Positions 3,716-59,500 of a DNA stretch of 64,000 nucleotides are shown here, one piece after another (position 1 is the stretch's first letter; each line of letters starts with the position of its first letter). Source of the DNA: Bacteroidota bacterium (GTDB lineage Bacteria; Bacteroidota; Bacteroidia; SXHM01); the NCBI GenBank assembly GCA_947478465.1, contig CANJWH010000010.1, positions 991-64,990 of the forward strand. Direction: 5' to 3'. The notes below the pieces were generated by a model. The model was not told where the DNA came from. It made no database searches and saw only the letters and a program-made list of their open reading frames with translations. The position numbers and the translations under genes are program-made.

Positions 3716-4771
3716 TTACAGAGCAGGAGCTTTTTTGTATTCAGCAGGAACATCTCCTGTCAGCGATTTTAAAAATGCTTCAACCGAATTTATTTCTTCG
3801 GGGCTCATGCGATAAGCTAATTGAGCAACAGCCATAATCTGAATTGCTTTTTTAAGATCAACAACGCTGCCATCATGAAAATATGGATGGGTTTTTTCTA
3901 TGTTGCGAAGTGAAGGAACTTTGAACATATACTTATCATCTTGCTGTTTTGTAACTGCGGCCCTTCCTTCATCAATTTTTTTGCTTTCAGTCAGCGTCCA
4001 GTATTCACGGTGAACACCAAATTTCTGCATCATGCTTCCACCTAAAGTTACACCATTGTGACAGGTTGTACAACCTATTTTTATAAAATTATTTAGTCCT
4101 TTTTTTTCGTCCAGCGTTAGCGCAGTATTATCACCTGCAAGGTATTTATCAAAACGTGAAGGCGTTATCAACTTGCGCTCAAAAGCAGCAATTGCTTTAC
4201 GCATGTTTTCATAAGTAATTCCTTTTCCCGGAAAAGCTTCGTTGAATAGTTGCTTGTATTCAGGAACTGTGGAAAGACGTTTTACTAAAAATGTCTCATC
4301 AGGAATTTCCATTTCAACGGGATTTAATATAGGCATCCCTGCTTGTTCTTCGACATCTTTTGCACGGCTGTCCCAGAATTGTGTCGTATGCAATGCAGCA
4401 TTCAAAACAGTAGGTGAATTACGGTCGCCATTTTTTCCTGCATCACCCGGTGAGGTGGGTAAATTATCCACTCCAAAAGTTTCCAGATTGTGGCAGGAGT
4501 TGCAACTGATTTTTCCTTCTTTTGATAAACGCGTATCAAAATATAAAGCATGACCAAGCTTTACTTTTGCATCCGTAATCGGATTGTCAGGGTTTTCTGC
4601 AACTGCCGTTAATGCTGCAAAAGCAGATAATCTTGGTTTTATTTCCGCATCTATTTTTGCTTCTTCATTTTCTGTGCTTACTTCCTGTTTTTGTTCTGGT
4701 TGCGAAGAACAACTGTTTAGAAAAAGAGCGACAGAAATTGCTGCTGTAAAGTAAAGATTGAATTTGTTCAT
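3716..4771 (-). CDS. di-heme cytochrome c peroxidase
   Basis: Two CXXCH motifs (CNSCH, CTTCH). Lipoprotein-type signal (LFLNSC). Length and overall similarity match the bacterial CCP/MauG family. Confidence 0.85.
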   Translation of the reverse strand: MNKFNLYFTAAISVALFLNSCSSQPEQKQEVSTENEEAKIDAEIKPRLSAFAALTAVAENPDNPITDAKVKLGHALYFDTRLSKEGKISCNSCHNLETFGVDNLPTSPGDAGKNGDRNSPTVLNAALHTTQFWDSRAKDVEEQAGMPILNPVEMEIPDETFLVKRLSTVPEYKQLFNEAFPGKGITYENMRKAIAAFERKLITPSRFDKYLAGDNTALTLDEKKGLNNFIKIGCTTCHNGVTLGGSMMQKFGVHREYWTLTESKKIDEGRAAVTKQQDDKYMFKVPSLRNIEKTHPYFHDGSVVDLKKAIQIMAVAQLAYRMSPEEINSVEAFLKSLTGDVPAEYKKAPAL

Positions 4772-7012: not shown

Positions 7013-8308
7013 ATGAATATAATGGCAGCCACCACCACCCGCGAATTAATCGTATCCGAAGTAGCAGAGAACCTAATTGCCAGCGAGATTATAAAAATCG
7101 CCAACGAGGTAAACGAGAAGATTAAGAACGGTGAGAAAATATATAACCTCACTATCGGAGATTTTAACTCCAATATTTTCCCAATCCCTGATGGATTGAA
7201 AGCTGAAATAATAAAAGCTTACGAAAATAATCAGACCAATTATCCGGCAGCCAATGGAATTCCTGAACTGCGCAAATCGGTTTCAAAATATCTGAAACGC
7301 AAAGGGCATTTGGATTATTCTGAAAATCAAATTCTGATTTCTGCTGGAGCTCGTCCATTGATTTATGCGACTTTCACAGCTCTTTTAGACCCGGGTGATA
7401 CAGTAATTTATCCTGTTCCAAGTTGGAATAATAACCACTACACACATCTTTCTTCTTGCAAAAAAGTAGAGATAGAAACCACTGCCGAAAACAAATTCAT
7501 GCCTTCAGCCGCAGATTTAAAACCTCATTTAGCTGATGCCACAGTAGTTGCTCTTTGCTCACCGCTAAACCCAACTGGAACCATGTTCAGCAAAGAAGGG
7601 TTGGAACAAATCTGTGATTTAATTCTGGAAGAAAATGCAAAGCGTGAAGAAGGCAGAAAACCACTTTATCTCATGTATGACCAGATATACTGGGCATTAA
7701 CCATGACCGGTAATAAGCATTATGATCCGGTTAGTTTGCGCCCTGAGATGCGTAACTACACCATTTACATTGATGGAATTTCAAAAGCATTTGCATCAAC
7801 AGGTGTTCGCGTGGGTTGGGCGTTTGGGCCGCAAAAAATAATTGACAAAATGCGCGCATTGCTTTCACACGTTGGTGCCTGGTCGCCAAAAGCAGAACAG
7901 GTTGCAACCTCAGTTTTTCTGGAAAAAGAAAACGAAGTAGATGAATACCTGACCTGGATAAATAAAAATGTTTCTGAACGTTTAGCCGGTTTTTACAACG
8001 GTTTTCAGACATTGAAGAACGAAGGATTTGCAGTAGATTCAATTGCTCCGCAGGGCGCCATGTATCTTACTGTTCAGTTTGCGTTGCATGGCTACAGAAC
8101 TGAAACAGGAAAAACACTTGCTACTACACAAGATATCACCAGCTATTTATTAGATGAGGCTAAAACAGCATTAGTGCCTTTCTATGCTTTTGGCACTTCA
8201 TCAGAATCAAATTGGTATCGCCTTTCCATAGGCACTGTAAAAACCGAGGATATTGAAAAAGTAATTGCACAAATGCGCACTGCGCTTTCTAAATTGAAAA
8301 AAGGGTAA
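7013..8308 (+). CDS. PLP-dependent aminotransferase, class I/II
   Basis: Fold-type I aminotransferase. Lys motif SKAFASTGVRVGW. About 430 aa. Confidence 0.8.
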   Translation: MNIMAATTTRELIVSEVAENLIASEIIKIANEVNEKIKNGEKIYNLTIGDFNSNIFPIPDGLKAEIIKAYENNQTNYPAANGIPELRKSVSKYLKRKGHLDYSENQILISAGARPLIYATFTALLDPGDTVIYPVPSWNNNHYTHLSSCKKVEIETTAENKFMPSAADLKPHLADATVVALCSPLNPTGTMFSKEGLEQICDLILEENAKREEGRKPLYLMYDQIYWALTMTGNKHYDPVSLRPEMRNYTIYIDGISKAFASTGVRVGWAFGPQKIIDKMRALLSHVGAWSPKAEQVATSVFLEKENEVDEYLTWINKNVSERLAGFYNGFQTLKNEGFAVDSIAPQGAMYLTVQFALHGYRTETGKTLATTQDITSYLLDEAKTALVPFYAFGTSSESNWYRLSIGTVKTEDIEKVIAQMRTALSKLKKG

Positions 8309-23824: not shown

Positions 23825-24706
23825 TTAACGTTTTATCAATAACTTACCAGTTGTAATGGTGGTTTCGTTACGGTCAAAAATTCTGTAAAAATAAGTCCCG
23901 TTAATAAGGTTAGTAACGTTTACATCTTGCTTAACTTCGTTAACCTGATAGGTTTCTACCTTTCTTCCAGTTACATCAAAGATTGTAAGGGTTGCTTCCG
24001 TTTTTAAGTTAATAATATGGATAGTATTTTCGGCTGGGTTAGGGCCAAGACCAACTTTTACTTTATTAATGTGATCTTCAATGCCTGTATTATCAAAGTC
24101 AAAGGCTAAATCATCTAAAAATAAAGTTGAACCTTCAAAACCATTAGCGCCTGCACTGGAGATTAACACTAAAACAGCAGTATCGGGATTTTCGGTTGAA
24201 ATGTATTCTATTGAGTCAACAAATTCTTCGTAGCTTGAATTGGTTTGTGTAAATTCAATAATTGTATGTCCTATTGTTTCACGTTGTGTTCCATTCCATT
24301 TACTAAGGGTAACTTCAACAGAGGCTGTATCACCGTTAACCGGGGTATACATAAACCATCCAGACAGAGAGATGGGTCGCTGATTATATGCTATGCCTCC
24401 GCTAATAGTTCCATCAGTATTAATTGTACCTGTTGCGCAAATTCCTGGGGCAACATATTGTGAAATATTTTTAGTTAATAATTTCAGAGCAGTTAATCCA
24501 CCATGTACTTCATTTGAGTTAGTGGTTTTTATTGCTGTGCCGTTCGGTAATATAGATGCTACTAATGAGTTTATTGTTCCCCACCCATTTGGGTCGTCAT
24601 AACCTGGTCCCGCTGTCCAATCTTCAAACCCGGGATTGGGAATAGATTGTGATTTTGTATCAATTGAAAACAAGGCTAATAAAATTACTGGTACTAATTT
24701 TTTCAT
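23825..24706 (-). CDS. secreted hypothetical protein with T9SS type-A C-terminal sorting domain
   Basis: Signal peptide. C-terminal about 80 aa ends ...NGTYFYRIFDRNETTITTGKLLIKR, typical of a Por/T9SS CTD. Confidence 0.7.
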   Translation of the reverse strand: MKKLVPVILLALFSIDTKSQSIPNPGFEDWTAGPGYDDPNGWGTINSLVASILPNGTAIKTTNSNEVHGGLTALKLLTKNISQYVAPGICATGTINTDGTISGGIAYNQRPISLSGWFMYTPVNGDTASVEVTLSKWNGTQRETIGHTIIEFTQTNSSYEEFVDSIEYISTENPDTAVLVLISSAGANGFEGSTLFLDDLAFDFDNTGIEDHINKVKVGLGPNPAENTIHIINLKTEATLTIFDVTGRKVETYQVNEVKQDVNVTNLINGTYFYRIFDRNETTITTGKLLIKR

Positions 24707-24743: not shown

Positions 24744-26387
24744 TTATTTAATAACTATTCGTTGTACAGATTGATAATTCCCGGCTGAGATTGCGACCAA
24801 GTAGATACCTGCTGCATATTTTTCAGGGAACTCAATTTCATCTAAATAATTTCCTGCGGGTTTATTTTTTTGACTCATCAGAAGTGATTTTTCGCCCAAA
24901 ATGTTAATGAGTTCAACTTTAAGATCTGAAGTAGTTGGTAAAATATAATTCATCGAAATCATATCTGATGCAGGATTTGGGAAGACGCTAACTTTAAGAG
25001 GGTTATTATCAGGATTATCAATACCCGATAACAAGTCTCCATAAATATATTGAAAGCCCATTACCATCATTTCCTCTTCAGAAGTAATGCCCCAGAAAAT
25101 AGTATCAGACGTATAATTTTTATAACGAGCACGGTGAATGAAGCCTAAACGGGGATCTACCTGAAGCAGGTTGTTATCATCAAAAAATTCTAAAGTTCCG
25201 TCAACTCCAAAACGGTGATAACCTACATTAAAACCTTGCTCATAACTATACCAGCTTTCGTATTCCTGAGTACCCATAGTGCCGTCAGGGTTGCGCAGGA
25301 AAATATCGTAATCTGTTCCGTATTTATGAGTATGTCCGTATAGCTGCCATATTTTCCAGTATCTGGTTTCGTTGGTATCGTTTGCTATTTCAATAAATTC
25401 ATGCTCCACATTATCGGGTGGTATTGCAATAGTGAAAACAGGATAATTTCTGATGAGCATAAAATCGGTAGCAGTACCTGTTGGTTGAGTATAGATATTC
25501 ATATACAGGTCGCAAGCCAAAACAGTGTCAGGGTTGGGATTTCTAATATGAAGGTTAAGGTCAAGAATAGAATTTTGTGCCCAGAAATAAGCAGTTGTAG
25601 GTGGTAAATCATATGTCCATACATTGGCACCGGTTCCAATTCCATCCGATACATCAGCATGTGAACTTAGTGCTTCAGGTCTTAAGCCATCATTATAGTT
25701 AGCTGCACCTCCCGGAAAGAATTTATACATTACAAAATGGTGCGTGCTTGGTGGTAACATTGTTTTCACTTTCGGAATTTCAAGATTCGATGTTAAGCGC
25801 AAATCATGTTTGATATAGTAGTAGTCTTCGGTAGCCGGTGGCACCAGAATTTTACCTACATAAATCTGAAATCCGCTGTCGGCCGGAGGAGGCTCATGAG
25901 CAGGATAGGTATCATCTTTTCCGGCACCACTGTAATAAAGATCAATTACAGCATTATCCACAACGTCTCCTGTTTGGGGCGCTCCATGCAATATCCATTG
26001 GCGCACCAGTTCAATATCCTCCTTCGCTAAGGCAGGAAGTCCGCTGGGCATATTATTTCCCTCTGTTCCAGCCAGAGCCATGTGAATATTGTTTTCATTT
26101 AATCCATGTACGATTTTGCGTAAAAGAAAACTGCGGTCAACATATCCGGGTGTTATCAGTTTATCACCTTTTGCTGCTGCTGTTGGATTAACCGGAGTAG
26201 CATTTACCAGGGCAGAATAAAATGCAGATTCAGAAAGTGTAACATTGAACGTTGGTGTTACTCCGCTATGACAACTTGCACCCGCACAGTTAGTTTGCAG
26301 GAGTTGATGAATTTGTGTAAAAGTGCTTTGTGATTTTACACTGATTGAGGTAAAAGCGAAGAAAATTAAGGGTATAAGTTTTCTCAT
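24744..26387 (-). CDS. secreted T9SS-CTD protein, paralogue 1: N-terminal Cys-x4-Cys-His domain + PHM/DBH-like putative copper monooxygenase core
   Basis: Signal peptide. CAGASCH motif. His pattern HH216-217, H280, H351-x-H353 and EEMMVM around 440, with PHM-like spacing. T9SS CTD at the C-terminus (GIYLVAISAGNYQSVQRIVIK). Confidence 0.72.
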   Translation of the reverse strand: MRKLIPLIFFAFTSISVKSQSTFTQIHQLLQTNCAGASCHSGVTPTFNVTLSESAFYSALVNATPVNPTAAAKGDKLITPGYVDRSFLLRKIVHGLNENNIHMALAGTEGNNMPSGLPALAKEDIELVRQWILHGAPQTGDVVDNAVIDLYYSGAGKDDTYPAHEPPPADSGFQIYVGKILVPPATEDYYYIKHDLRLTSNLEIPKVKTMLPPSTHHFVMYKFFPGGAANYNDGLRPEALSSHADVSDGIGTGANVWTYDLPPTTAYFWAQNSILDLNLHIRNPNPDTVLACDLYMNIYTQPTGTATDFMLIRNYPVFTIAIPPDNVEHEFIEIANDTNETRYWKIWQLYGHTHKYGTDYDIFLRNPDGTMGTQEYESWYSYEQGFNVGYHRFGVDGTLEFFDDNNLLQVDPRLGFIHRARYKNYTSDTIFWGITSEEEMMVMGFQYIYGDLLSGIDNPDNNPLKVSVFPNPASDMISMNYILPTTSDLKVELINILGEKSLLMSQKNKPAGNYLDEIEFPEKYAAGIYLVAISAGNYQSVQRIVIK

Positions 26388-26490
26388 TTAAATGCTGCTA
26401 TTTTGTTGGTTATTATTTTTTTAACAAGGCGAATATACAATTATCTTAATACCTGATACAAATTTGTAACATTTTTAATACCAGTAAAAT

Positions 26491-26525
26491 AAAAAAGCCC
26501 CTCGCTTATAACGAAGGGCTTTTTG
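26491..26525. terminator. terminator-like hairpin
   Basis: aaaaaagcccctcgcttataacgaagggcttttt lies downstream of the 26541-28196 gene on the minus strand. Confidence 0.55.
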
Positions 26526-26540
26526 TATCAAATAAAAGTA

Positions 26541-28196
26541 TTACTCAAAAACAATCTTCGCAGTCTCAACTCCTGCACCTGTTGAAACCGATAAGGTGTA
26601 AAAGCCTGCAGTAAGGTTCAAAGCACTTTTGCTCAGTTGCAGTTTTTGTTTACCCTGTGTAATGTAAACAGATTTGGAATAAACCTCTCTGCCCAGATTA
26701 TCAAACAGGCGGATAAAACCCTGTTCAGGTTTTTCGCTGTTGAACGATAAGTTAACCACATCGCCCGAAGGATTAGGATACACATTAAAATAATTGAAAG
26801 GGCTGTTTTCTTCTTTCACACCAATAGTAACAGGTTCGGTGGTGTATTGCATATAGGTTACATACATTTCATCGGTAGTTCTTAATCCAAAACCAATGGT
26901 GTCGGGTCCGGGATTATTAAAAACTGCCTCATGGATAAGTCCGTTGGTAAAATCAACTGGCTGCAAAGGGTCAAAGGTTCTGAAAGGCGGGTGCGACCAA
27001 TCATAATACCCCTGATTAAAGGTGTATTCAACATTGTAATTTCCGTCATAAATATGCTCGCCTTTTGTTCCGTCTGAGTTTCGCATCCATACATCAAACT
27101 GTTTTCCGCGCGCATGGGTATGAGCCATTATAGACCAGATGTAATGTGTGTAGGCGGTGTCAACTTCAAACTGGTTAATCACTAACGTGGTGTCAGTTGC
27201 TGTTGGTAAAAGGTGGAGGTTAAGCGGGTCGCTGCCACCATAATAAACCGGATTCGAAAGCATTTCGGTCTGAGCGGTTCCCATGGTTTGGGTATATACG
27301 TTCATATATATTTCGGCTGGCAAAATAGAGTCGGCATTGTAGTTGGGGATGTGATAGTTAATATCCAGAACGGTGCTGTCCTGCCAGGTAAAAGCAGTGC
27401 CTTCGGGAAGTACCAAATCCTGACTGTTGGGCCACTGACCCAAAATACTGCTGGCATAATAAACACCGGCAGCATCTAAAATAGAATTCACAGGTCTAAG
27501 TCCCGGATTGAAAAATGATTCAAGCCCGTCATTGTATTTATATAAAGCCGTGTGGTGCGAGTATTCGTTGATTTCGGTTCTAACACGATACACTTCTTTT
27601 CCTTCAATCATTTTGGTCTCGTATTTATAAAATACTTCTTGCTCGGTTGAAGGCAATACAAAGAATGGTCCGTAGTGTATCTGGTAACCTTCAGATGGGT
27701 CTGGTGCGGCAAGTGGTGTAATTCTTGGCATCCCCTGTCCGCCATAGAAATCAGCTAATGTTTGTGTATTTACATAATGATTGGTGTCACCTGCTCCCCA
27801 AAGTATCCATTGGCGAATCAATTCTATTTGATCATCAGGTAACTGATTTAAGTTGCTTGGCATTGGATTTCCCATTTGGTTGGTAAGGTAATTAACCCCG
27901 GGATCAATGTCGTGTGCTACTTTTCTGAATAGAAAACTTCTGTCAGGATAACCCGGATCAACTAATTTATAACCTTCGGTGATTGCAGCAGGGTTTATAG
28001 GGTTAACATTTATAAGACGCTGGTAAACCTCAGCAGTTGTGCCAGATAAATTCAGCTGCCCTGAAGGACTGCCTCCGCTGTGACAGCCAGTAGCGCATTT
28101 AAGCTGAAAAATAGCATGCACTTCGTCAAAAGTAGATTGAGCAAAAAGTGAAAAAGGCAAAACAAAAGAAGCAAAAAGTAAAGATTTAAATTTCAT
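26541..28196 (-). CDS. secreted T9SS-CTD protein, paralogue 2 (same architecture as 24744-26387)
   Basis: Signal peptide. CATGCH motif. HH214-215, H282, H359-x-H361, DEMYVTYM. T9SS CTD at the C-terminus. Clear paralogy with the neighbouring gene. Confidence 0.72.
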   Translation of the reverse strand: MKFKSLLFASFVLPFSLFAQSTFDEVHAIFQLKCATGCHSGGSPSGQLNLSGTTAEVYQRLINVNPINPAAITEGYKLVDPGYPDRSFLFRKVAHDIDPGVNYLTNQMGNPMPSNLNQLPDDQIELIRQWILWGAGDTNHYVNTQTLADFYGGQGMPRITPLAAPDPSEGYQIHYGPFFVLPSTEQEVFYKYETKMIEGKEVYRVRTEINEYSHHTALYKYNDGLESFFNPGLRPVNSILDAAGVYYASSILGQWPNSQDLVLPEGTAFTWQDSTVLDINYHIPNYNADSILPAEIYMNVYTQTMGTAQTEMLSNPVYYGGSDPLNLHLLPTATDTTLVINQFEVDTAYTHYIWSIMAHTHARGKQFDVWMRNSDGTKGEHIYDGNYNVEYTFNQGYYDWSHPPFRTFDPLQPVDFTNGLIHEAVFNNPGPDTIGFGLRTTDEMYVTYMQYTTEPVTIGVKEENSPFNYFNVYPNPSGDVVNLSFNSEKPEQGFIRLFDNLGREVYSKSVYITQGKQKLQLSKSALNLTAGFYTLSVSTGAGVETAKIVFE

Positions 28197-28327: not shown

Positions 28328-29194
28328 ATGATTAAAAAATTACTCTCAATTACATCAATCGCTTTGGTTTCTGTTTTTACAGTAACAGCTCAAACAACTA
28401 TTCCAAACGCAAATTTTGAAACATGGTCTGGCAGCAATGCTACCAGCTGGAACAACCTTAATGGTGTTGCTCCGGGTTCTTGCACAAAAGCAACCGCACC
28501 TGCCGATATTCACGGAGGTTCTGCTGCAATTATCCTTAAAACATTATCGGTATTCGGAAACACAGCTCCCGGAACAGCAGCTACAGGTACTATTAACCTT
28601 TTAGCACAAACTGTTACTGGTGGAACACCATTTACTGCCCGCCCTGATTCATTAACAGGCTGGTATAAATATGTTCCTCAAGGCAATGATGCCGGAAACA
28701 TTGTTGGTATTCTTTTAACTGCTGACCCTGCAAGAGATACCATTGCAACTGCTGTTTTCTTTCCTTCCGGGACAGTAAGCACATATACCTATTTTAAAGC
28801 GGCATTTGAATACCGTTTGCCGGATGTACCAACTCAGGCTCTTTTCATTATGGCATCTAGTGGTGCAAGCGGTGGAGTAGTAAACACCCTTATGTATGTT
28901 GACGATTTAGGTGTTGTATATAACCCATCTGTAGGTGTTGATGAAGCTACTGCAACAAAAGATATTTCAGTTTACCCTAACCCGGTTTCTGATAATCTGA
29001 ATGTTAACATGGCGGGTATTCAAGGTGCAAGCGTTTCAATTTTTGACATCACCGGCAAAAAAGTTGCTCAGCAAATCCTGACCGAAAAACTAAACAGTGT
29101 TAACGTTGCTTCATTGGCAAACGGAATGTACGTTTACCAGGTAAACAGCAACACAAACGGTACTTTGAAAACAGGTAAGTTTATTGTGAAATAA
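28328..29194 (+). CDS. secreted hypothetical protein with T9SS type-A CTD
   Basis: Signal peptide. N-terminal region (PNANFETWSG...) is similar to the 23825-24706 product. C-terminal CTD ...NGMYVYQVNSNTNGTLKTGKFIVK. Confidence 0.7.
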   Translation: MIKKLLSITSIALVSVFTVTAQTTIPNANFETWSGSNATSWNNLNGVAPGSCTKATAPADIHGGSAAIILKTLSVFGNTAPGTAATGTINLLAQTVTGGTPFTARPDSLTGWYKYVPQGNDAGNIVGILLTADPARDTIATAVFFPSGTVSTYTYFKAAFEYRLPDVPTQALFIMASSGASGGVVNTLMYVDDLGVVYNPSVGVDEATATKDISVYPNPVSDNLNVNMAGIQGASVSIFDITGKKVAQQILTEKLNSVNVASLANGMYVYQVNSNTNGTLKTGKFIVK

Positions 29195-29352: not shown

Positions 29353-29766
29353 ATGTATCCCGAAGAAATTGTAATACCAATGAAAAAAGACCTGACCAGT
29401 GCAGGTTTTACCGAACTAACAAATCCCGATGCAGTTGATGCAGCTATAAAAGCAGAAGGCACTACTCTGGTTGTGGTTAATTCTGTTTGCGGATGTGCAG
29501 CAGGAGCTGCCCGTCCGGGAGCTAAACTTGCCATTCAGAATTCAGGCAAACGTCCTGACAGGATCACAACTGTTTTTGCTGGTTTTGATACCGAAGCAGT
29601 TGCACGTGCCCGCCAGTACTTTGCACCATATCCTCCATCTTCACCTGCAATGGCTTTATTTAAAGATGGCAAACTGGTTCACTTCATCGAGCGTCACCAT
29701 ATTGAAGGTCGCTCTGCCGAAATGATTGCACAGAACCTGATGGGTGCTTTCGAAGAGTATTGCTAA
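29353..29766 (+). CDS. BrxA/BrxB (YphP/YqiW, DUF1094) family bacilliredoxin-like thiol-disulfide oxidoreductase
   Basis: Thioredoxin-like fold with the CGC active-site motif (VVNSVCGCAAG); about 135 aa. Confidence 0.72.
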   Translation: MYPEEIVIPMKKDLTSAGFTELTNPDAVDAAIKAEGTTLVVVNSVCGCAAGAARPGAKLAIQNSGKRPDRITTVFAGFDTEAVARARQYFAPYPPSSPAMALFKDGKLVHFIERHHIEGRSAEMIAQNLMGAFEEYC

Positions 29767-36451: not shown

Positions 36452-38839
36452 ATGAATAAAGTCATCACCTCCCTGCTTGTAATCCTTATCGCAGGCCTCT
36501 CTGTTTCTAACGCTCAAAACCTTATCACCATTGACAGTAAAGAATACCAGACTTTAAAGGTAGAAGGCAAAATTCCCATGATTCCCCTGGAACAGTTTGC
36601 TAAATACGTTCCCGAGAAAATCCTGAATGCCGAAGACTTTGCTCCTCGCTCTGTTGAAGGCGGAGGCCCTAATGTAAACTGTGGTTGCATCCAAACCCTT
36701 GATGGCACCTACACCCTTGCAATGGCTCCTAATGATGATGGTTCAACCGGCCTCATTTCCCTTCCTTTCAACTTCTGCTTCTATGGAACCAGCCAAACCA
36801 ATATGTATATCAATAACAATGGTAACATCTCTTTTGGTGCCTCTTACGGAACATTCTCTTCCAATCCTTTCCCCGATGCTACCTATGTAATGGTTGCTCC
36901 TTTTTGGGCCGATGTGGATACCCGCGGAACTGGCGAAGTATGGTACAAAGTAACTCCCTCTTATGCCATCATCCGTTGGCACAACGTAGGTTATTTCAGC
37001 TCACAAACCGATAAAATAAACGACTTCCAGCTCATCATCACCGATGGTAACGACCCTATCATTCCCGGTGGAAACAACATTGCTTTCTGCTATGGCGATA
37101 TGCAATGGACTACCGGTTCTGCTTCAAGCGGTGTAGGAGGTTTTGGTGGTACACCTGCAACAGTGGGTGCCAACTATGGTGATGGAACAGCCTTCGCACA
37201 GTTTGGCCGTTTTGACCATGCCGGTAATGATTACGATGGCCCCTTCAATAACTCAGACGGAATCAGCTGGCTCGATAACCAGAGTTTCGTATTCAACGGC
37301 TGCGTAAACAATGCTAACCTTTCACCTATTGCCGACAATGCCCTTGCTATCTGCGATACCATCCAGATTTGTGTGGGCGACACTTTCCCTTTTGAAGTGT
37401 CTTTCCTTTCTCCCGAGCAGGGTCAAATAACCACTACCACCATCGATACTTCGGGCATTTCAGGCTTTGAACTCATCAGCAATACCAGCGGAAACATCTC
37501 GTCAGTATCTGCTGTATTTTATGCTACCGAAGCCAACGCAGGATACAATACCTTTACCCTTAACGCAACCGATAACGGAACACCGGCTCAAACCAACGTG
37601 TTCACAGTAAACATTTTTGTCAGCCGTATTGTGGACCCTCAGGTATTAGGAGACTTTACCTATTGCGCTCCCGGAAGTGTTAGTATAACCCTCGACTCAG
37701 CCTTTGCTTATACAAGCTACATCTGGTCAACCGGAGATGCAAACCCCGATTCAGTCTTAGACCCTTTGTTGGAAGGAAACTATTCTGTTACCTGCTACAA
37801 CGAGTATGGTTGCAACCGCACACTTGATTTCCAGATTGTGGAATTAGGAAACCTGCAAATGACAAATACAGTGAGCAATATCGTTTGTAATGGTGATGCC
37901 AACGGAAGCGTTATTTCTCAGTCAAATGTTCCTGCGCAGCTTAACTTCTTCTGGGAAAACTCTTCAGGCGATACCATTCACGTAGGCTTCATCACTCAGG
38001 GAACCGATCAGGTAAGCGGTCTTGAGCCGGGAACATATTACGTTAGCGCTTACGATACTTTGGGCTGTTTCACCTACCTCGATTCAGTAGTTATTAGCGA
38101 ACCTGCACCATACGTTACTGATAACATGTCTACTCCGGAAACCTGCGAAGATGCAAATGGTGTAGCAATGGTTACAACTGTTACAGGAAACACTTCACCA
38201 TATGCATATGTATGGTCACCCGCAGGCGGAACAGATGACATGGCAGACAGTCTTGCAGCCGGAACCTATACCGTTACCATTACCGATATTAATGGTTGCG
38301 TAAAAGTAGATACAGTAGTTGTTGGCGGAATTTCTTCACCAACAGCAAATTTCAGTAACAACCCTACAGCAGCCCTGTTAGATGTGCCTGTTACCTTCAC
38401 CGATAGCTCACTTGCAAATGGCGATACCATCGTTTCATGGTTCTGGGATTTTGCTGACGGAACAACCGACACGCTTCAAAACCCTGTTCATGCTTTTGCT
38501 GATACCGGAACCTATCCTGTAATGTTAGTTGTTACCAACACAGAAGGTTGCACCGATACCATCATCATCGAAATGTTAGTGATTACTGAAATAGTAGTTC
38601 CTAACGTTTTCACACCAAACGGAGATGGTTTCAATGACACATTTGTTATCCAGTATTTACCACAGCTTTATCCTGGTAGTAAACTCTACATTTACAACCG
38701 TTGGGGTAAACGTGTTTACAAAAGCGATAACTACCAGAACGATTGGGATGGTGATAAGCACAGCGAAGGAACCTATTTCTATGTGCTCGAAGTTTCTGAC
38801 GGAACCAAACAAAAAGGTACCGTTACCATCATGAAGTAA
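36452..38839 (+). CDS. secreted surface protein with SprB-like repeats, a PKD-like domain and a type-B T9SS C-terminal domain (gliding-motility-associated CTD)
   Basis: Signal peptide. CNGDANGS-type SprB repeats and a PKD-like segment ([11 protein letters not shown]). The C-terminal about 90 aa ([16 protein letters not shown]...GTYFYVLEV...) matches the CHU_C/type-B CTD. Confidence 0.8.
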
Positions 38840-50134: not shown

Positions 50135-51817
50135 TCATTGCCTTGCAGTTTTAATACGAAAACAAGTCAAACACCAAGTATTACCATGCTTTATTGAAAC
50201 AGGTGTTGCCCACCATTGATGACCCTCTTTGCATTGCCATAAAAGTTTTGTACTGCTATTTTTATATTCTTTTGATAAGCATAGTCCTTGATTTCTTATG
50301 GCAAGGTGCTGCATTTCCTCTATCGTAAGTTTTTTCAATTTTGAACATTCAGGACACCAACATTTAGCATGAATAATTGATACTGGTGGTGATTGAAATT
50401 GATGGCCCTCTTTACATTCCCAAATAAGTTTAGTGCTAAGGTTTATATACTTTTCTGATAAACATTTCCCACCTCTCAATTTTGCAAGCTCCTGCATTTG
50501 CTCAATTGTCTTCTTTTCAGAACCACTACACTTTAAACACCAACTCTCATTATTTTTTACATTATTAGGAGATGCAAACCATCTGTGTCCTTTTTTGCAT
50601 TCCCATTCTAAATTTCCCTCACTCCCCTTATATTCATTTGAAATAAGCTTTCCTCCTCTTTGTTGAGCAATTCCATTTAACATTGTAATTGCTGAAAAAC
50701 TCTTCTTAAATTCATCAAACGAAATCTCTTCCGGCTTTCTTATAATTTGAACTTCTACTCTCTCCAGCTCTTTTACTATCCACCCGACTAAACCGTCTTT
50801 AATTTTATTAGCAAAGTCTGGAATAAGTATGATTTTAATTCCTTTCTCCCTGCATAATTTTTCTTTTAGACTATCGCGTTTTTGCGCTTCTGATAACGTA
50901 TATTTTTCCGAGTGAAAAAATTTTATCTCTTCAAAGTGCTGAGCACCATTGTACTCAAATGCTAAATTATATTCCTTTGAGTAACCATCTAATTCTAATC
51001 TATTTCCAAGAACTTGTCTTGTTTTTTTGAATTCTGTTTGTAACAAATATTCTAAAATGAATCTGCATTTTTCTTCTGTATAATACCATCTACATTGCGG
51101 ACACCATTGTCCACTGTTCATTATACTTGCTGAAATCATTTCAAATGTATGTCCGTCTGCACATTTCCATTCTAGTTTTGTTCGGCTGTTTACATACGCT
51201 GTTGATAGTAATTCCCCACCTCTCGATTTAGCAATCTCTTGTAACTCTTTAATTGTTGGCTTTGCCTTTCCAGAACATTTTGGACACCATACATTATTGC
51301 CTTTAATATCATGTGCAGTTGCTAAAAAATTATGCCCTTTTTCACATAGCCAAGATAGTTTTTCTTTATTGTGATTATATCTTTCAGATAAACATTGACC
51401 TCCTTTTGTCTTAGCATATTCTTTCATTTCCTCTATGGTCAGTTTTTTTGTTCCACCACATTCGTGACACCAATGTTTAGCATTAATTATTGAACTAGGT
51501 GTTGCAAACCATTCATGCCCTTTATCGCATTGCCAATGAAGAGTTGAATTAATATTCTTATAAGATATTGATAGACATTTCCCCCCTCTTGATTTTGCAA
51601 TTTCTTGCATTTTTTCAAGAGTATATTTTCTTTTTCCTGAGCAATCAGGACACCAATGCCCATATTTTATTGAGTGGTATAAAGCAGTCCATTTGTGCCC
51701 TTTTGCACATTGCCATTCAAGTTTATTATTGCTGTTTTTGAATTCTAATGACAAGCATTTTCCCTCTCGCAGCTTTGCAAGTTCTTGTGCCTTATTAATC
51801 GATAATTCAGATCGCAT
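50135..51817 (-). CDS. multi-zinc-ribbon repeat protein with central DUF559/Vsr-like (PD-(D/E)xK-type) nuclease-like domain
   Basis: Seven tandem roughly 50-aa modules, consensus T[IL]EEMQE[IL]AKxRGGKCLSxxYKNxxxKLxWxCxKGHxWxAxPxSIxxxxxWCPxCSG, four N-terminal and three C-terminal. They flank a core with ELDGYS...LAFEYNGAQH...KRD..L...GIKIILIP resembling DUF559 endonuclease-like domains. Confidence 0.6.
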   Translation of the reverse strand: MRSELSINKAQELAKLREGKCLSLEFKNSNNKLEWQCAKGHKWTALYHSIKYGHWCPDCSGKRKYTLEKMQEIAKSRGGKCLSISYKNINSTLHWQCDKGHEWFATPSSIINAKHWCHECGGTKKLTIEEMKEYAKTKGGQCLSERYNHNKEKLSWLCEKGHNFLATAHDIKGNNVWCPKCSGKAKPTIKELQEIAKSRGGELLSTAYVNSRTKLEWKCADGHTFEMISASIMNSGQWCPQCRWYYTEEKCRFILEYLLQTEFKKTRQVLGNRLELDGYSKEYNLAFEYNGAQHFEEIKFFHSEKYTLSEAQKRDSLKEKLCREKGIKIILIPDFANKIKDGLVGWIVKELERVEVQIIRKPEEISFDEFKKSFSAITMLNGIAQQRGGKLISNEYKGSEGNLEWECKKGHRWFASPNNVKNNESWCLKCSGSEKKTIEQMQELAKLRGGKCLSEKYINLSTKLIWECKEGHQFQSPPVSIIHAKCWCPECSKLKKLTIEEMQHLAIRNQGLCLSKEYKNSSTKLLWQCKEGHQWWATPVSIKHGNTWCLTCFRIKTARQ

Positions 51818-53550: not shown

Positions 53551-56500
53551 TTATTGCAGAACCGTTACATTTCCTGTATTGCTAAATCTTCCGTCTTCGT
53601 GTTCCATGCCTTCCCATTGTGTTCCATCCATAAAGGTTGCATCTGCTTTCCAGATATAAGCACCCTGTGGAACAACCACACCATTGTATCTTCCATCCCA
53701 GCTTTCAACAGGTTTGCCATCAATTAACTTACTCGATTCCCAGAGCAGGTTACCCCATTTATCAAATATCATACAGTGGTAAGTTGCTACACCAATACCT
53801 TTTGGCAGGAAGTATCCGAAGTCGCCATCACCACCAACAATCAATGCATTAGGCATAAACAATCCTTTGAAAAGTTCCACTTCAACAGTTTGAGTAATGG
53901 TATCTGAACATCCTGCACCGCTGTAAGCAATCAGTGTTACATCAAACTCACCGTTGTCTGAATAATTGTTTATCGGATCTGTAAGTGTTGATGTTTGTCC
54001 GTCACCAAAATCCCAATCGTACGTTGTTGCACCTGTTGAAAGGTTGGTGAACTGAATTTGTCCGTCAGGGTCAACTACATTGAAATAATCGGAAGTGAAA
54101 TCTGCTACCGGGGTTTGCAACACTGTTACAGCAGAAGTGAGTTCGAGTGTATCGTTACAGATGCCGCCTCCACTTACTACCAATGTTACATCGTATGTTC
54201 CGGGAATTTCATAAGTGTGTGAAGGGTTGCTGAGCATTGAAGTATCACCATCACCAAAGCTCCAGTAGTAGGTAACACCGTCAACTGAATTGTTTGTGAA
54301 GGTCACCGTGTAAGGAGCACAACCTGAGTTTCCGCTCAACGCGAACGATGCAGTAGGTGCAGGATAAACATTGTAAACGTAATCCGAAGTATCTATGCAA
54401 CCACTTGCAGAAGTTGCAGTCAACACAACTGTATAAGTTCCGGTAGTATCAAAACTTGCTTGTCCGTTAGTAGTTGTTGCATTAGTTCCGTTTCCGAAGT
54501 TCCATGAATATGAAACAGCATTTGTTGAAGTATTAGTAAAATCAACTGTTACCGGATAAGTGCAGGAGTAAGTATTTGTAGAAGGCACTGTGAATGCAGC
54601 TACCGGAGGTGCGCTGATTGTTACGGTTACACTGTCCTGAGTTCCTACACAACCAAGTCCATCAGTTACAGTTACTACATACGTTGTAGGTACCGAAGGC
54701 AATACGATGTGCGAAGCTCCGTTTCCAAGACCATTGTTCCAGCTGTAAGTGTACACACCATTACCGCCTGTTGCGGTTGCAGAAATAGTAATACTGTCCC
54801 CTGCACAAACTACGTTTCCGATGCTGTTTATGTCAGCAACCAATTGTGCCGGCTGACCTATTGTAATTGTTTGCGAAGCAGCGCATCCATTTGCATCTGT
54901 AGCTATCACTATGTAAATTCCTGCAGAAAGACCTGTTGCTGTTGAAGTTGTATTATTACTTGGTGTCCAGTCGTAAGAGTAAGGAGTTGTTCCGCCAGTT
55001 ACAAGAACAGTTGCTGTTCCGTTTACTCCACCAAAGCAGGTAGGTTGTGAACTTCCTATTAAAGAAATTGCCATGTTACCCGGAGCAGAGATGGTAACGG
55101 TTGTGCTGTCTGAACATCCTGCGGCATCAGTTACAATAACTGTATGGCTTCCTGAAGTAAGGTTGGTAGCAGTAGCAGTTGTTTGTCCGTTATCCCAAGC
55201 GTAGTGGTAAGTTGGTGTTCCACCCACAACAGCAACAGTTGCAATACCAGTTGCAGAACCACCGCATGCAGGCTGTACAATGTTTGAAATAGTTAAATCA
55301 AGTGCAGCAGGTTCGCTCACAGTAAATGAAAGTTGAAGTGCGCAACCAGTAGAGTCGGTAATATTTACTGAATAGTCACCTGCCAGAAGATTTGTTGCTG
55401 GAACTGTAGTTTGTCCGTTACTCCAAGCATAAGTATATGGAGTATTTCCACCGGCAATGTTAAAGCTGATGCTTCCATTGTTTTCACCATTGCAGGTTAC
55501 ATTGTTTACATCCACATCTCCGGCTGAAAGAACTGCATTTTCGGTAATTACAAAGTTTACAATGGTGATACATTGATTGGCATCACGGATAGTGACAGAG
55601 TGCAATCCGGCCGGCAAATCTGAAACAGTTTGAGTTGTTTGACCATTATCCCAAACGTAGGTATAGCCCGGAATACCACCTGAAACGTTTATAGAAGCCG
55701 ATCCTGTAGCGCCACCTGCACAACCAACATTTACCTGGTTTTCAATAAACGCAGACATTGGTGAAGGCTGTGTGATGACTAAACTTAAAGAAGTATCGCA
55801 ACCACTTGCATCAGTAATCTGAACAGAGTATTCACCTGCGCCAACACCATTCAAATCATGAGTGGTTGCACCGTTAGACCATAAGAAAGTATATGGAGCA
55901 GTTCCGCCAATTACATTAATGAAGCCAGCGCCATTGCTTCCTCCGTTGCAAGTTACATTTAGTATATCAAGAATTGTTGCAGTTAAACTTGGTGGCTCTG
56001 TAATGTCAGCAAAAACAGTTTGTGAGCAACCATTTGCATCAACAACTGTTACCTGATGAATTCCAAATGCAAGACCTGTTGCAGTTTGTGTTGTTTGCCC
56101 GTTGGCCCATGAATAAGTGTAAGGAGCTACTCCACCGGTTACGTTTACTGTTGCAGATCCGTTGGCAACTCCTGCGCAGCTTACAGAAGAAGTATTCTCG
56201 ATAACTGCAGTTAATTGCGTAGGATTAACAACCTGAATAGTGTCAGTTGAAGAACAGCCATTAGCATCTGCTGCAGTTACAATATAAGTTCCTGCGAAAA
56301 GATTAGAAGCAACCGAGCCGGTTTGTCCGTTGCTCCAAAGGTAAGTGTAAGGAGCTGTTCCTCCTGAAGGAGTTGCTGTAGCAACACCGTTTCCGGCACC
56401 AAAGCAACTAACATCTTCACTATTGAAATCAGAAGTTACATCAGCACTTACTGTGAGAGTAATAGGGTTAACAATTCCAGCTTGAGTAGTTGTTGTGCAG

Positions 56501-59500
56501 TTGTTAGCATCTGTAACTGTTACATCATAAATACCCTCGGCAAGATTAGTTGCAGTTGCATTTGTTTGTCCGTTCACCCACAAATAAGTGTAAGGAGCAG
56601 TTCCGCCAGTAACAGAAACTGTAGCACTTCCATTGTTATTTCCATTGCATGAAGGCTGAGTAGTTGATGAAATTGTAGCAACCAGTTGCTCTGGCTCATT
56701 CACCACAATGTTTATAGTAGTATCACAACCCAGAGAATCAGCTAATGTGATTGAATATGTTCCTGCAATTAATCCGGAAATATCTTCTGTTGTAGAACCG
56801 TTACTCCAGGAGTATGAGTAAGGAGCAGTTCCACCGGAAGGTGTGATGTCAATAGCTCCGTCATTTCCTCCATTGCAACTTACATCGCTTACAGCAATAT
56901 TATTAGAAGGAATTGCAAGAGGTTGAGGTTCGCCAACTATAACAGTTAAGATTACATTGCATCCGTTGGTATCTGAAACTGTAACGGTATAAGTTCCGGC
57001 AGCAAGACCTGTTGCTGTAGAACCTGTTTGTGTATTTGACCAAAAGTAGAAATATCCCGGAGTTCCACCAGCGGCCTGAACTGTTGCGCTTCCGTTTGCA
57101 ACACCGTTGCATGAAGGTGTAACAATTGAAACAACATCTGCAGTTAAAACCATAGGATCAACTAGTGTTACAGAAACGGTGGTGTCGCAACCGTTAGCAT
57201 CTGTAGAAGTTACAAAGTATGTTCCGGCAGCTAAGTCGGTTGCAAAATAATCTGTTGAACCGTTAGACCATTGGTAAGTGTATCCGGGGGTTCCGCCATT
57301 TACTAAAACTTCTGCCATACCATCAGCATCGCCTGCGCATGATATGTCCGTTCCGTTATAGTCTGAAGTAACTGTAGCGTATGCAATAAGTGGATTAGGT
57401 TCACCAATAAGTACGTTTGTTGATGCAATGCATCCGTTGTTATCGGTTACACTTACAAAGTAAACACCTGCACTTAGGTTTGTAGCAGTAGATGAAGTTT
57501 GTCCATCACTCCACAAATATTGGTATCCGCTTGCACCTCCGGTAGCGTCAACTGTTGCATAACCATCTGCTAAACCACTGCAGCTTACATTATGTTGGTC
57601 TATTAGATTTACTTCCAACAATTCAGGTTCTGTTAAAGTAATGCTGTCATTAATTGAGCATCCGTTTATATCAGTAATGGTTACATAATATGTTCCTGCA
57701 AAAACAAATACCAGATTTTCGTCAGTTGAAGTAAAACCGTTTGGTCCTGTCCATGCATAATTGTAATCAGCACAATCTGCACCACCACTTAAAGCAAGAT
57801 TGATGCTGCCATTATTAGTATTTGCGCAGTTTATGTTCCAGCCTCCTGCATTTACTGGGCTTGTCAGACTATCAACTGTAAGCGGTGTTGGTTCTGTTAA
57901 TGTAATTGAAGTTGTTGCAGTATTTCCAAGCCCATCTGTAACGGTTACGGAATATGTAGTTGCAGAAAGACCGGTAGCAACTTGTGAAGTTTGTCCGTTG
58001 CTCCATAAGTAAGAATAAGGCATGCATCCACCGGCAGGCAATGCGGTTGCAGTTCCATTATTTCCTCCCGGACAAGTAATATTAAATCCACAGCTAAATG
58101 TATCAGCAACTGCAGAAACTAACAAAGGATTTGCAAGAACAGTTATGTCAAATGAACAGGTTGTTGTATTTCCTGAAGCATCAATTGCTGTGTATGTTAC
58201 AGTTGTTGTTCCAACAGGGAAGCTGTTTCCTGACTGGAAGTTACTGGTCAATGAGGTAACCGCACAGTTGTCAGTAGCAATTGGCGTATTCCATGTAGCA
58301 TAAGGATTGCAATTTGAACTGTCAGGTTGAATTACAATATCAGCAGGACACAAGGTAAATTCAGGTGCAATGTTATCCACTACCGTTATAGTTGAGAAAC
58401 AATTGTCTGAATTTCCATTCACATCCGTAACAGTAAGTGTTACCAGATTTTCGCCAACATTTCCGCAGTTGAAAGATGAAACAGAAATTATCATTGTATC
58501 AATTCCGCATGCATCAGTTGAGCCGTTATCAATTTGTGCAGCGGTGATTGAAATTACTCCATTAGAGTCAAGAGCAACAGTAATATTTTGACAAATTGCA
58601 TTAGGATTGGTTGCATCGACAACTGTAACAGTTGAAGAGCAGGTAGCAACATTTCCGTTGAGGTCAGTAACAGTTAAAGTAACAGTATTAGAGCCAACAT
58701 TTGAGCAGTCAAATGTATTTGGAGAAACTGTCATTGAAGCAATTCCGCATGCGTCTGAAGAACCGTTATCAACCTGTGAAGAAACGATTGAAATATTTCC
58801 TGTTCCGTCTAAATCAATTGTAATATCGCGGCAGATTGCAATTGGATCAACATTATCCTGCACTGTTACAGTTGATATACAGGTTGAAACATTTCCATTA
58901 ACATCAGTCACAGTTAATGTTACAGAATTAGTTCCTATACCAGCGCAAGTAAAGGTGTTAGGGTTCACAGTCATTGTTGCAATTCCGCAGTTGTCAGATG
59001 AACCATTATTTACCTGTGAAGAATCGATTGTTACCTGTCCGTTTGCATCCAACTGAACCGTGATGTCTTGACAAATTGCAATCGGATCTATCTCGTCATT
59101 AATAGTAACTGTTGCTGTGCAAGAAGAAGAGTTTCCGAAAGCGTCTGTAACAGTTAAAGTCACAGTATTTGCACCAACGTTTGAGCAATCAAAATTGGTT
59201 TCACTTACGCTGTATGTTAAGCCATTGTTAGGAGTTGAGCAGTTGTCGAACGAACCATTGTCAACCTCAACAGCAGTAATAACAGCGTTTCCGTTTGCAT
59301 CTAACTGTACTGTTATGTTTTGACAAATAACAGTTGGTGAAACAGTATCGGTAATTGTAACAACAGCATCGCATGAAGAAGAATTTCCGTTAGCATCAGT
59401 TACGGTTAATGTTACTGTGTTGGCTCCGATGTTTGAGCAATCAAAATTAGTTTGACTTGCAGTGTAAATTAAGCCTGAACCTGAATTAGAGCAGTTGTCA

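Follow-up and report, generated by a model that had tools for sequence, protein, structure and literature searches.

Paralogous Bacteroidota proteins with a cytochrome c-like domain, a core resembling PHM and DBH, and a type IX secretion signal

Organisation of the two genes

The window analysed here is a stretch of 64,000 nucleotides from an uncultured freshwater Bacteroidota bacterium (GenBank assembly GCA_947478465.1, contig CANJWH010000010.1, positions 991 to 64,990 of the forward strand). Two neighbouring open reading frames (ORFs) in this window, A and B, encode proteins of one architecture: a signal peptide is followed by a cytochrome c-like N-terminal domain, by a core that resembles peptidylglycine alpha-hydroxylating monooxygenase (PHM) and dopamine beta-hydroxylase (DBH), and by a C-terminal sorting domain (CTD) of the type IX secretion system (T9SS) (Table 1). 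A first-pass annotation, made from the letters of the sequence, had described two paralogues here. Both ORFs were recovered with the same boundaries, and their products align along the entire length with 33% identity (BLASTP, E 1e-88), which means that they are paralogues.

In the core of each protein, a His-His pair (HH) is followed by a single His, a His-x-His motif (HxH), and a Met in a (D/E)EM motif. The distance from HH to the single His, 63 residues in A and 67 in B, is the one annotated before. The next two intervals deviate slightly: 72 (A) and 77 (B) residues separate the single His from HxH, for which 71-77 had been given, and 84 (A) and 81 (B) residues separate HxH from (D/E)EM, for which about 85 had been given. 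In the N-terminal domain, where an LIRQWIL(H/W)GA segment had been annotated, A reads ELVRQWILHGA, not LIRQWILHGA.

Table 1. Features of ORF A, ORF B and their immediate surroundings, with positions in the window; residues called candidates are predicted ligands.
Feature	Position	Strand	Remarks
PCMD (PF13201) + T9SS CTD protein	23825..24706	minus	293 aa; 37 bp downstream of A
ORF A	24744..26387	minus	547 aa; diverged paralogue, architecture as in ORF B
A, T9SS type A CTD	24747..24986	minus	PF18962 E 5e-9, TIGR04183 E 2e-10
A, Met440 in EEM (438-440), candidate CuM ligand	25068..25070	minus	motif script and alignment
A, His352-Thr-His354, candidate CuM ligands	25326..25334	minus	motif script and alignment
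A, His280, candidate CuH ligand	25548..25550	minus	motif script and alignment
A, His216-His217, candidate CuH ligands	25737..25742	minus	motif script and alignment
A, Met113, MP motif	26049..26051	minus	motif script and alignment
A, putative haem c attachment motif CAGASCH (C34, C39, H40; C-x4-CH)	26268..26288	minus	motif script and alignment
Intrinsic terminator-like hairpin	26492..26524	minus	15 pairs and T run; directly past B stop codon
ORF B	26541..28196	minus	551 aa; signal peptide, cytochrome c-like domain, predicted two-copper core like that of PHM/DBH, T9SS type A CTD
B, T9SS type A CTD	26544..26783	minus	PF18962 E 4.4e-10, TIGR04183 E 2.1e-11
B, PHM/DBH-like catalytic core, residues 160-460	26817..27719	minus	Foldseek DBH 4zel E 1.8e-12; PHM TMt ~0.6; hhalign E 2e-5
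B, Met444 in DEM (442-444), candidate CuM ligand (PHM M314)	26865..26867	minus	profile alignments
B, His359-Thr-His361, candidate CuM ligands (PHM H242/H244)	27114..27122	minus	profile alignments
B, His282, candidate third CuH ligand (PHM H172 region)	27351..27353	minus	register +2 in profile alignments
B, His214-His215, candidate CuH ligands (PHM H107/H108)	27552..27557	minus	profile alignment, motif script
B, N-terminal PSCyt1-type cytochrome c domain (predicted), residues 20-150	27747..28139	minus	sequence profile matches
B, Met112 in invariant MP motif, candidate distal haem ligand	27861..27863	minus	aligns with axial Met region of cytochrome c6 and FoxE
B, putative haem c attachment motif CATGCH (C34, C38, H39; C-x3-CH)	28080..28097	minus	C, C, H invariant
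B, signal peptide, residues 1-19, then Gln20	28140..28196	minus	Gln20 >=90% conserved; cleavage site inferred
PCMD + T9SS CTD protein	28328..29194	plus	288 aa; divergent from B

Conservation and distribution of the family

A word-indexed search gave 344 relatives of these proteins. In an exhaustive hidden Markov model search with a profile of the core only, at least 944 cluster representatives at 50% identity were found with E <=1e-3, and 241 had E <=1e-30. Conservation was followed in a reference alignment of 42 sequences, in which identity to B falls as low as 32-38%. Both Cys residues of the N-terminal domain, the His after them, the Met of the MP motif, HH, the single His, HxH, and the Glu and Met of (D/E)EM are invariant across this alignment. 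When motif expressions were applied to 239 full-length relatives, HH was present in all 239, HxH in 238, and [DEGH]EM in 231. Judged by these alignments, the motif pattern is conserved and does not arise by chance.

A scan of species-representative genomes left 79 related loci. All 79 are from metagenome-assembled genomes of Bacteroidota (Chitinophagales, Flavobacteriales, Saprospiraceae, and 'Bacteroidia'), chiefly of lake or treatment-plant origin, and several of the scanned genomes have multiple loci. A match to one metagenome-assembled genome, GCA_947479515.1, was also obtained for the window itself. None of the sources searched gives a functional name for these proteins; some members already bear automated Pfam Cu2_monoox_C matches. 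Nothing on this family was found in the literature, incompletely covered, on bacterial PHM/DBH homologues, their Pfam families, PHM-like proteins, and the putative carbohydrate metabolism domain (PCMD), nor did it yield a paper on any bacterial member of the PHM/DBH class. As far as could be found, the presence of a haem c domain and a PHM/DBH-type copper core on one chain is apparently an undescribed combination.

Structure of the copper core

An AlphaFold2 model of B, calculated from the family alignment, has a mean predicted local distance difference test (pLDDT) score of 88.4 and a predicted template modelling (pTM) score of 0.75. Its core is a beta-sandwich of two sub-domains like that of PHM and DBH. 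When the model was compared with the PDB by Foldseek, the best 30 matches were all human DBH or rat PHM, with E values from 1.8e-12 to 3e-8. These matches comprise approximately 310-325 aligned columns and have template modelling (TM) scores of about 0.6 on the PHM length, which means that both sub-domains are covered. The matches that follow are unrelated beta-sandwich proteins with far lower TM scores.

The profile of the core was then aligned by hhalign with rat PHM (residues 45-356, a sequence 100% identical to that of PDB entry 4E4Z) and with a 27-sequence profile of the PHM family. The former alignment has an E value of 5.4e-4 over 252 columns, and the latter a probability of 77% and an E value of 2e-5. 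In the alignment with the rat sequence, His214 and His215 of B are placed exactly on His107 and His108 of PHM. In both alignments, His359 and His361 are placed on His242 and His244, Met444 is placed on Met314, and the two LPxG motifs fall together. Of the six candidate copper ligands, five are thus exactly on those of PHM. The invariant HxH...M pattern, which had been likened to the CuM site of PHM and DBH, matches that of PHM residue for residue. The interpretation of the proteins as copper monooxygenases of the PHM/DBH kind was therefore supported by the fold, by the alignment of the ligands, and by their conservation. The carboxylate-binding Arg240 of PHM is not conserved in the family, so peptidyl-glycine is unlikely to be the substrate.

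PHM belongs to the same double jelly-roll superfamily as PNGase F, which comes from a Bacteroidota species, and the genes adjoining A and B carry PCMD. These points might suggest that the core is a PNGase F-like or other non-metal jelly-roll with a glycan-binding or hydrolytic role, in which the His pattern is a relic. Relic ligands, however, would not remain invariant among proteins that are only 32-40% identical, and copper-chaperone-like neighbours are present in 10 of the 79 loci. This view of the core is highly improbable. PNGase F-like identity itself was rejected: no PNGase F entry is among the best 50 PDB fold matches, the first 30 of which are those to DBH and PHM.

The N-terminal domain

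The model of the N-terminal domain is helical, with a pLDDT of 87.9. The non-canonical Cys spacing pointed out in the first-pass annotation is true of A and B, but the spacing varies inside the family, from CX2CH to CX6CH. CX3CH is present in 33, CX4CH in six, and CX2CH in three of the 42 aligned sequences; among the 239 relatives, the numbers are 122 for CX3CH, 60 for CX4CH, and 50 for the canonical CX2CH. CX3CH and CX4CH have both been described as motifs for haem c (PMC11492766).

A search of the PDB with the profile of this domain gave sub-threshold matches only, and eight of the nine were to cytochromes c6 or the dihaem iron oxidase FoxE. The alignments with c6 and FoxE cover the CXnCH motif and the G-x-MP...L...I..WI..GA segment, in which the distal Met of c6 is located. 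The MP motif (Met113 in A, Met112 in B) aligns with the NAMP or NRMP segment of these cytochromes, and its Met might be the distal ligand of the haem. The same profile reaches stand-alone dihaem lipoproteins with E values of 1e-5 to 1e-9. The first domain of these lipoproteins has CX4CH and the second CXXCH, and the CX4CH domain passes the PSCyt1 model of Pfam, scoring for example 41.8 bits where 22 are required. P0267 and P0271, which are N-terminal fragments of proteins in the family, also exceed the gathering scores of PSCyt1 or Cytochrome_CBB3. Matches to PSCyt1 were obtained for 4 of the 42 members and to Cytochrome_CBB3 for 5; those of A and B themselves to cytochrome models in Pfam and NCBIfam are below threshold, and far below it in B. 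The likeness to planctomycete-type cytochrome c that had been suggested for the domain was supported in that its profile reaches proteins called PSCyt1 or Cytochrome_CBB3 by Pfam. On sequence comparison, the domain is probably a PSCyt1-type cytochrome c domain.

The domain is almost always joined to the core, whose start is at about residue 160 in nearly all the best 150 representatives. Thirteen shorter entries were read; most of them begin within the N-terminal domain or the core and look like truncated gene calls. One clear natural variant, P0211 (375 aa), has a signal peptide followed directly by the copper core and lacks the cytochrome c domain. Fusion of the two parts is thus near-obligate.

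The variant P0211, the non-canonical spacing in most members (with rare CX5CH and CX6CH), the sub-threshold cytochrome matches of B, and the lack of any significant Foldseek match of the domain model to cytochrome c would also fit a core of the PHM/DBH type carrying a haem-free N-terminal domain. In that case the two Cys residues would be joined in a disulfide or hold a metal, the domain would serve a structural purpose or bind the substrate, and a small-molecule reductant would act as ascorbate does in PHM. This is considered unlikely. Canonical CXXCH is found at the same position in 50 of the 239 members, the His after the second Cys and the Met of MP are invariant, and the commoner spacings are themselves known for haem c. 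Furthermore, the homologous CX4CH domains pass PSCyt1, and the two family fragments pass PSCyt1 or Cytochrome_CBB3.

That the organism matures c-type cytochromes is shown by a gene, also in the window, for a dihaem cytochrome c peroxidase (3716-4771, minus strand; CCP_MauG, E 1e-57) with two CXXCH motifs, approximately 20 kb from the pair. Linkage of cytochrome c peroxidase to family genes was not seen in the other loci.

Export signals

The signal peptide and T9SS CTD annotated in both products were found again, with the CTD above the curated cut-offs in A and B. In the two proteins PF18962 (Por_Secre_tail) scores 36.8 and 40.1 bits (cut-off 27), and TIGR04183 scores 40.5 and 43.6 bits (cut-off 23). 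The family profile also matches the solved T9SS CTDs 8GLK and 8GLJ in a search of the PDB. The signal peptide of A is 19 residues long and followed by Gln, as in B. In longer relatives, Ig, PKD or SprB spacer domains are inserted ahead of the CTD, which is typical for T9SS cargo displayed at the surface. These extra domains were considered as a clue to the substrate, and the idea was dropped; they are Ig, PKD, and SprB spacers only, with no carbohydrate-binding module among them.

No T9SS core gene is present within the 64-kb window, which contains several other CTD-bearing genes. Further T9SS cargo is a giant surface protein of 3436 aa with SprB, HYR, and PKD repeats (53551-63861, minus strand) and a NIDO and PKD protein with a type B (CHU_C) T9SS signal (36452-38839, plus strand).

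Genomic neighbourhood

The pair is flanked by two genes for PCMD proteins that carry a T9SS CTD. The two flanking proteins are paralogues of each other (30% identity, E 5e-43). B is probably monocistronic, since the strong terminator-like hairpin lies between B and A. A and the PCMD gene downstream of it, at a gap of 37 bp, are probably co-transcribed.

Neighbouring ORFs were called and clustered across the 79 related loci. A gene for a PCMD protein with a CTD lies immediately upstream, in divergent orientation, in 20 of the 72 loci having an upstream ORF, in clades that are only about 40% identical; the PCMD proteins next to family genes range from 287 to 820 aa. This neighbour is a weak hint at a glycan or polymer substrate.

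A gene for a lipoprotein with an HMA domain (MxCxxC motif; PF00403, E 1e-13) is present no more than two genes upstream in 10 of the 79 loci, in two layouts: upstream of tandem pairs in L030, L031, L033, L034, L047, L048, and L054, and in L073, L078, and L079. In seven loci it is accompanied by a 124-aa protein that consists of little beyond a T9SS CTD. The copper-chaperone-like neighbour is independent genomic support for copper.

In six loci (L018, L019, L028, L041, L045, and L077), a protein of about 285 aa with a choice-of-anchor V domain (NF041895, E 1.4e-17), a T9SS CTD, and a conserved CxxCH is encoded directly downstream. To judge from this motif, it may be a second secreted haem protein. 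In a complete 4.2-Mb genome (locus L083), a gene for a reductase with FAD_binding_6 and NAD_binding_1 domains (7281-7991) precedes the family gene on the same strand at a distance of 10 bp, an arrangement seen in this one locus.

Apart from the window, 10 of the 79 related loci have tandem pairs of family genes. The pair identities range from 36 to 70%, which argues for repeated independent duplication. A fixed pairing of A and B as two subunits was rejected, as the tandem pairs elsewhere arose independently. The unit of A and its adjoining PCMD gene is missing in the closest relatives L001, L004, and L009 and present in L002 and L082; it seems to be a recent gain.

A functional link to the housekeeping genes at the flanks (aminotransferase, 2-hydroxyacid dehydrogenase, bacilliredoxin-like protein, NhaD-type transporter, and TerC) was likewise rejected, because they co-occur in the closest relatives only. 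The bacilliredoxin-like gene (29353-29766, plus strand; Disulph_isomer, PF06491, E 1e-63), with a CGC motif, is syntenic in these relatives only. Elsewhere in the window, the stretch at 50-54 kb has a GC content of 0.35-0.37 and a strongly negative GC skew and may be a defence or mobile island. It includes a gene (50135-51817, minus strand) for a protein with a DUF4379 treble-clef zinc finger and CapR homology domain.

Proposed function and mechanism

The reading favoured here is that A and B are surface or extracellular two-copper C-H hydroxylases, to which electrons are fed by their own haem c domain. A probability of roughly 0.6 is given to it.

In the proposed mechanism, the Sec signal peptide would send the protein to the periplasm. 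Haem c would be attached covalently there to the CXnCH motif, with the His of this motif and the Met of MP as axial ligands, and two copper ions would be loaded. The protein would then cross the outer membrane through the T9SS and be released or anchored at the cell surface. CuH, with the three His residues of HH and the single His, might store an electron and hand it on. CuM, with the two His residues of HxH and the Met of (D/E)EM, might bind O2 and hydroxylate the substrate at a C-H bond. Single electrons would reach CuH by way of the fused cytochrome c domain instead of free ascorbate.

Several observations weigh against this proposal. In the core, B scores only 15.6 bits on Cu2_monoox_C (E 0.012; gathering cut-off 23) and A does not match it. 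Comparison with Pfam, which had been suggested in the first-pass annotation, thus gave a divided result: 32 of the 42 members match Cu2_monoox_C (PF03712) at E <=1, the best with 1.5e-7, but none of the 42 matches Cu2_monooxygen (PF01082), the model of the N-terminal sub-domain. Searches of PDB sequences by phmmer or profile, with full-length B, the family profile or the core-only profile, gave T9SS CTDs or noise and never PHM. Homology to PHM is therefore visible only by comparison of folds and of profiles with profiles. The disulfides of PHM are also absent: B has no Cys other than Cys34 and Cys38, and A has one more, Cys292.

The third ligand of CuH is a further point of the same kind. Whereas the HH part of the annotated CuH pattern is placed exactly on the PHM residues, the invariant His282 is aligned two residues after His172 of PHM in both hhalign runs, with a column confidence of about 0.5-0.6. 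The family has a conserved Asn at the His172 column, and His282 and this column are on the same face of the strand. A manual register with His282 on His172 would set Asn280 on Gln170 of PHM.

As for the haem, the best Foldseek match of the N-terminal domain model is a weak one, the haem c domain of hydrazine synthase (E 0.69; TM score on the query, TMq, 0.42). The single CX5CH and CX6CH cases in the family are open to doubt as to haem maturation. Lastly, no electron donor for the haem is evident beyond the outer membrane.

The proteins might instead transfer electrons between haem and copper, or act as oxidases, without any hydroxylation. Electrons from Fe(II), reduced humics or phenolics would enter or leave through the haem, and copper would reduce O2 to H2O2 or water. 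The nearest solved relatives of the N-terminal domain by profile include the iron-oxidising FoxE, though this match is sub-threshold (E 0.27). Surface display is indicated, a second CxxCH protein is encoded directly downstream in six loci, and the substrate-binding Arg240 of PHM is not conserved. On the other hand, the hydroxylase ligands, His3 and His2Met, are all invariant, and the Met among them is specific to CuM, the site that activates O2; no similarity to cupredoxins or multicopper oxidases was seen in the domain and Foldseek searches. A function of this type is improbable.

If A and B are hydroxylases supplied by their own haem domain, a more specific role can be put forward tentatively, as a possibility less likely than that general reading. 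They would be self-sufficient monooxygenases of the cell surface, in which haem c collects electrons from the environment or from surface cytochromes and the PHM-type copper pair hydroxylates an extracellular polymer or a dissolved organic molecule. The PCMD neighbour would then be a substrate-binding partner, and A and B would represent an ascorbate-independent prokaryotic branch of the PHM/DBH class and a new oxidative tool of freshwater Bacteroidota beside the lytic polysaccharide monooxygenases (LPMOs).

PHM, DBH, and related enzymes are well known from animals, where they make noradrenaline and amidated peptide hormones; the delivery of electrons to them from ascorbate is still debated. 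If the favoured reading is true, A and B would provide a bacterial single-chain model with a built-in haem donor, in which electron transfer from haem to CuH and on to CuM could be followed by optical spectroscopy, and the T9SS would prove able to export a protein with both haem c and copper. The breadth of the family, its frequent presence in multiple copies within a genome, and its export by abundant Bacteroidota of lakes and wastewater point to an unrecognised copper-dependent oxidation of extracellular organic matter.

Comparison with known systems

PHM (residues 45-356 of rat PAM; PDB entries 1PHM, 1OPM, and 4E4Z) shares with A and B the beta-sandwich of two sub-domains (Foldseek E ~1e-11, TM score ~0.6) and the HH...H and HxH...M pattern, which is similarly spaced; the alignment extends to LPxG and (D/E)EM. 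Identity is approximately 16%, and A and B differ in the lack of the PHM disulfides and of a conserved Arg240 and in the two-residue offset of the third CuH His in the profile alignments. They are bacterial, carry a cytochrome c domain and a T9SS CTD on the same chain, and have no partner domain corresponding to PAL.

DBH (human; PDB entry 4ZEL), which is compared here together with the MOXD and tyramine beta-monooxygenase group, is the best structural match (E 1.8e-12). Like A and B, it consists of several domains, with an accessory one on the N-terminal side of the copper core. This accessory domain, however, is a DOMON beta-sandwich and not a haem c domain; moreover, DBH ends in a dimerisation domain and uses ascorbate.

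The N-terminal domain shares the CXnCH...MP...(L/I)xxWIxxGA signature with PSCyt1 (PF07635) domains and class I cytochromes c, which include the Saprospirales-type dihaem lipoproteins P0289 and P0293 and FoxE (PDB entry 5MAB). In A and B, unlike in these proteins, a single domain is fused to an enzyme core; the spacing in the family is mostly CX3CH, and B is below the Pfam thresholds.

The fourth comparison is with the LPMO systems. The secreted c-type cytochrome domain of Cellvibrio Cbp2D reduces an LPMO, an extracellular copper monooxygenase (PMC8981238). LPMOs are mononuclear histidine-brace enzymes on a polypeptide separate from the haem domain, whereas A and B have a predicted two-copper core of the PHM type on the same chain, and there is no relation in sequence or fold. 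The likeness to Cbp2D and to the cytochrome domain of cellobiose dehydrogenase is one of logic only: in each case a secreted haem domain feeds, or in A and B would feed, single electrons to a secreted copper oxygenase.

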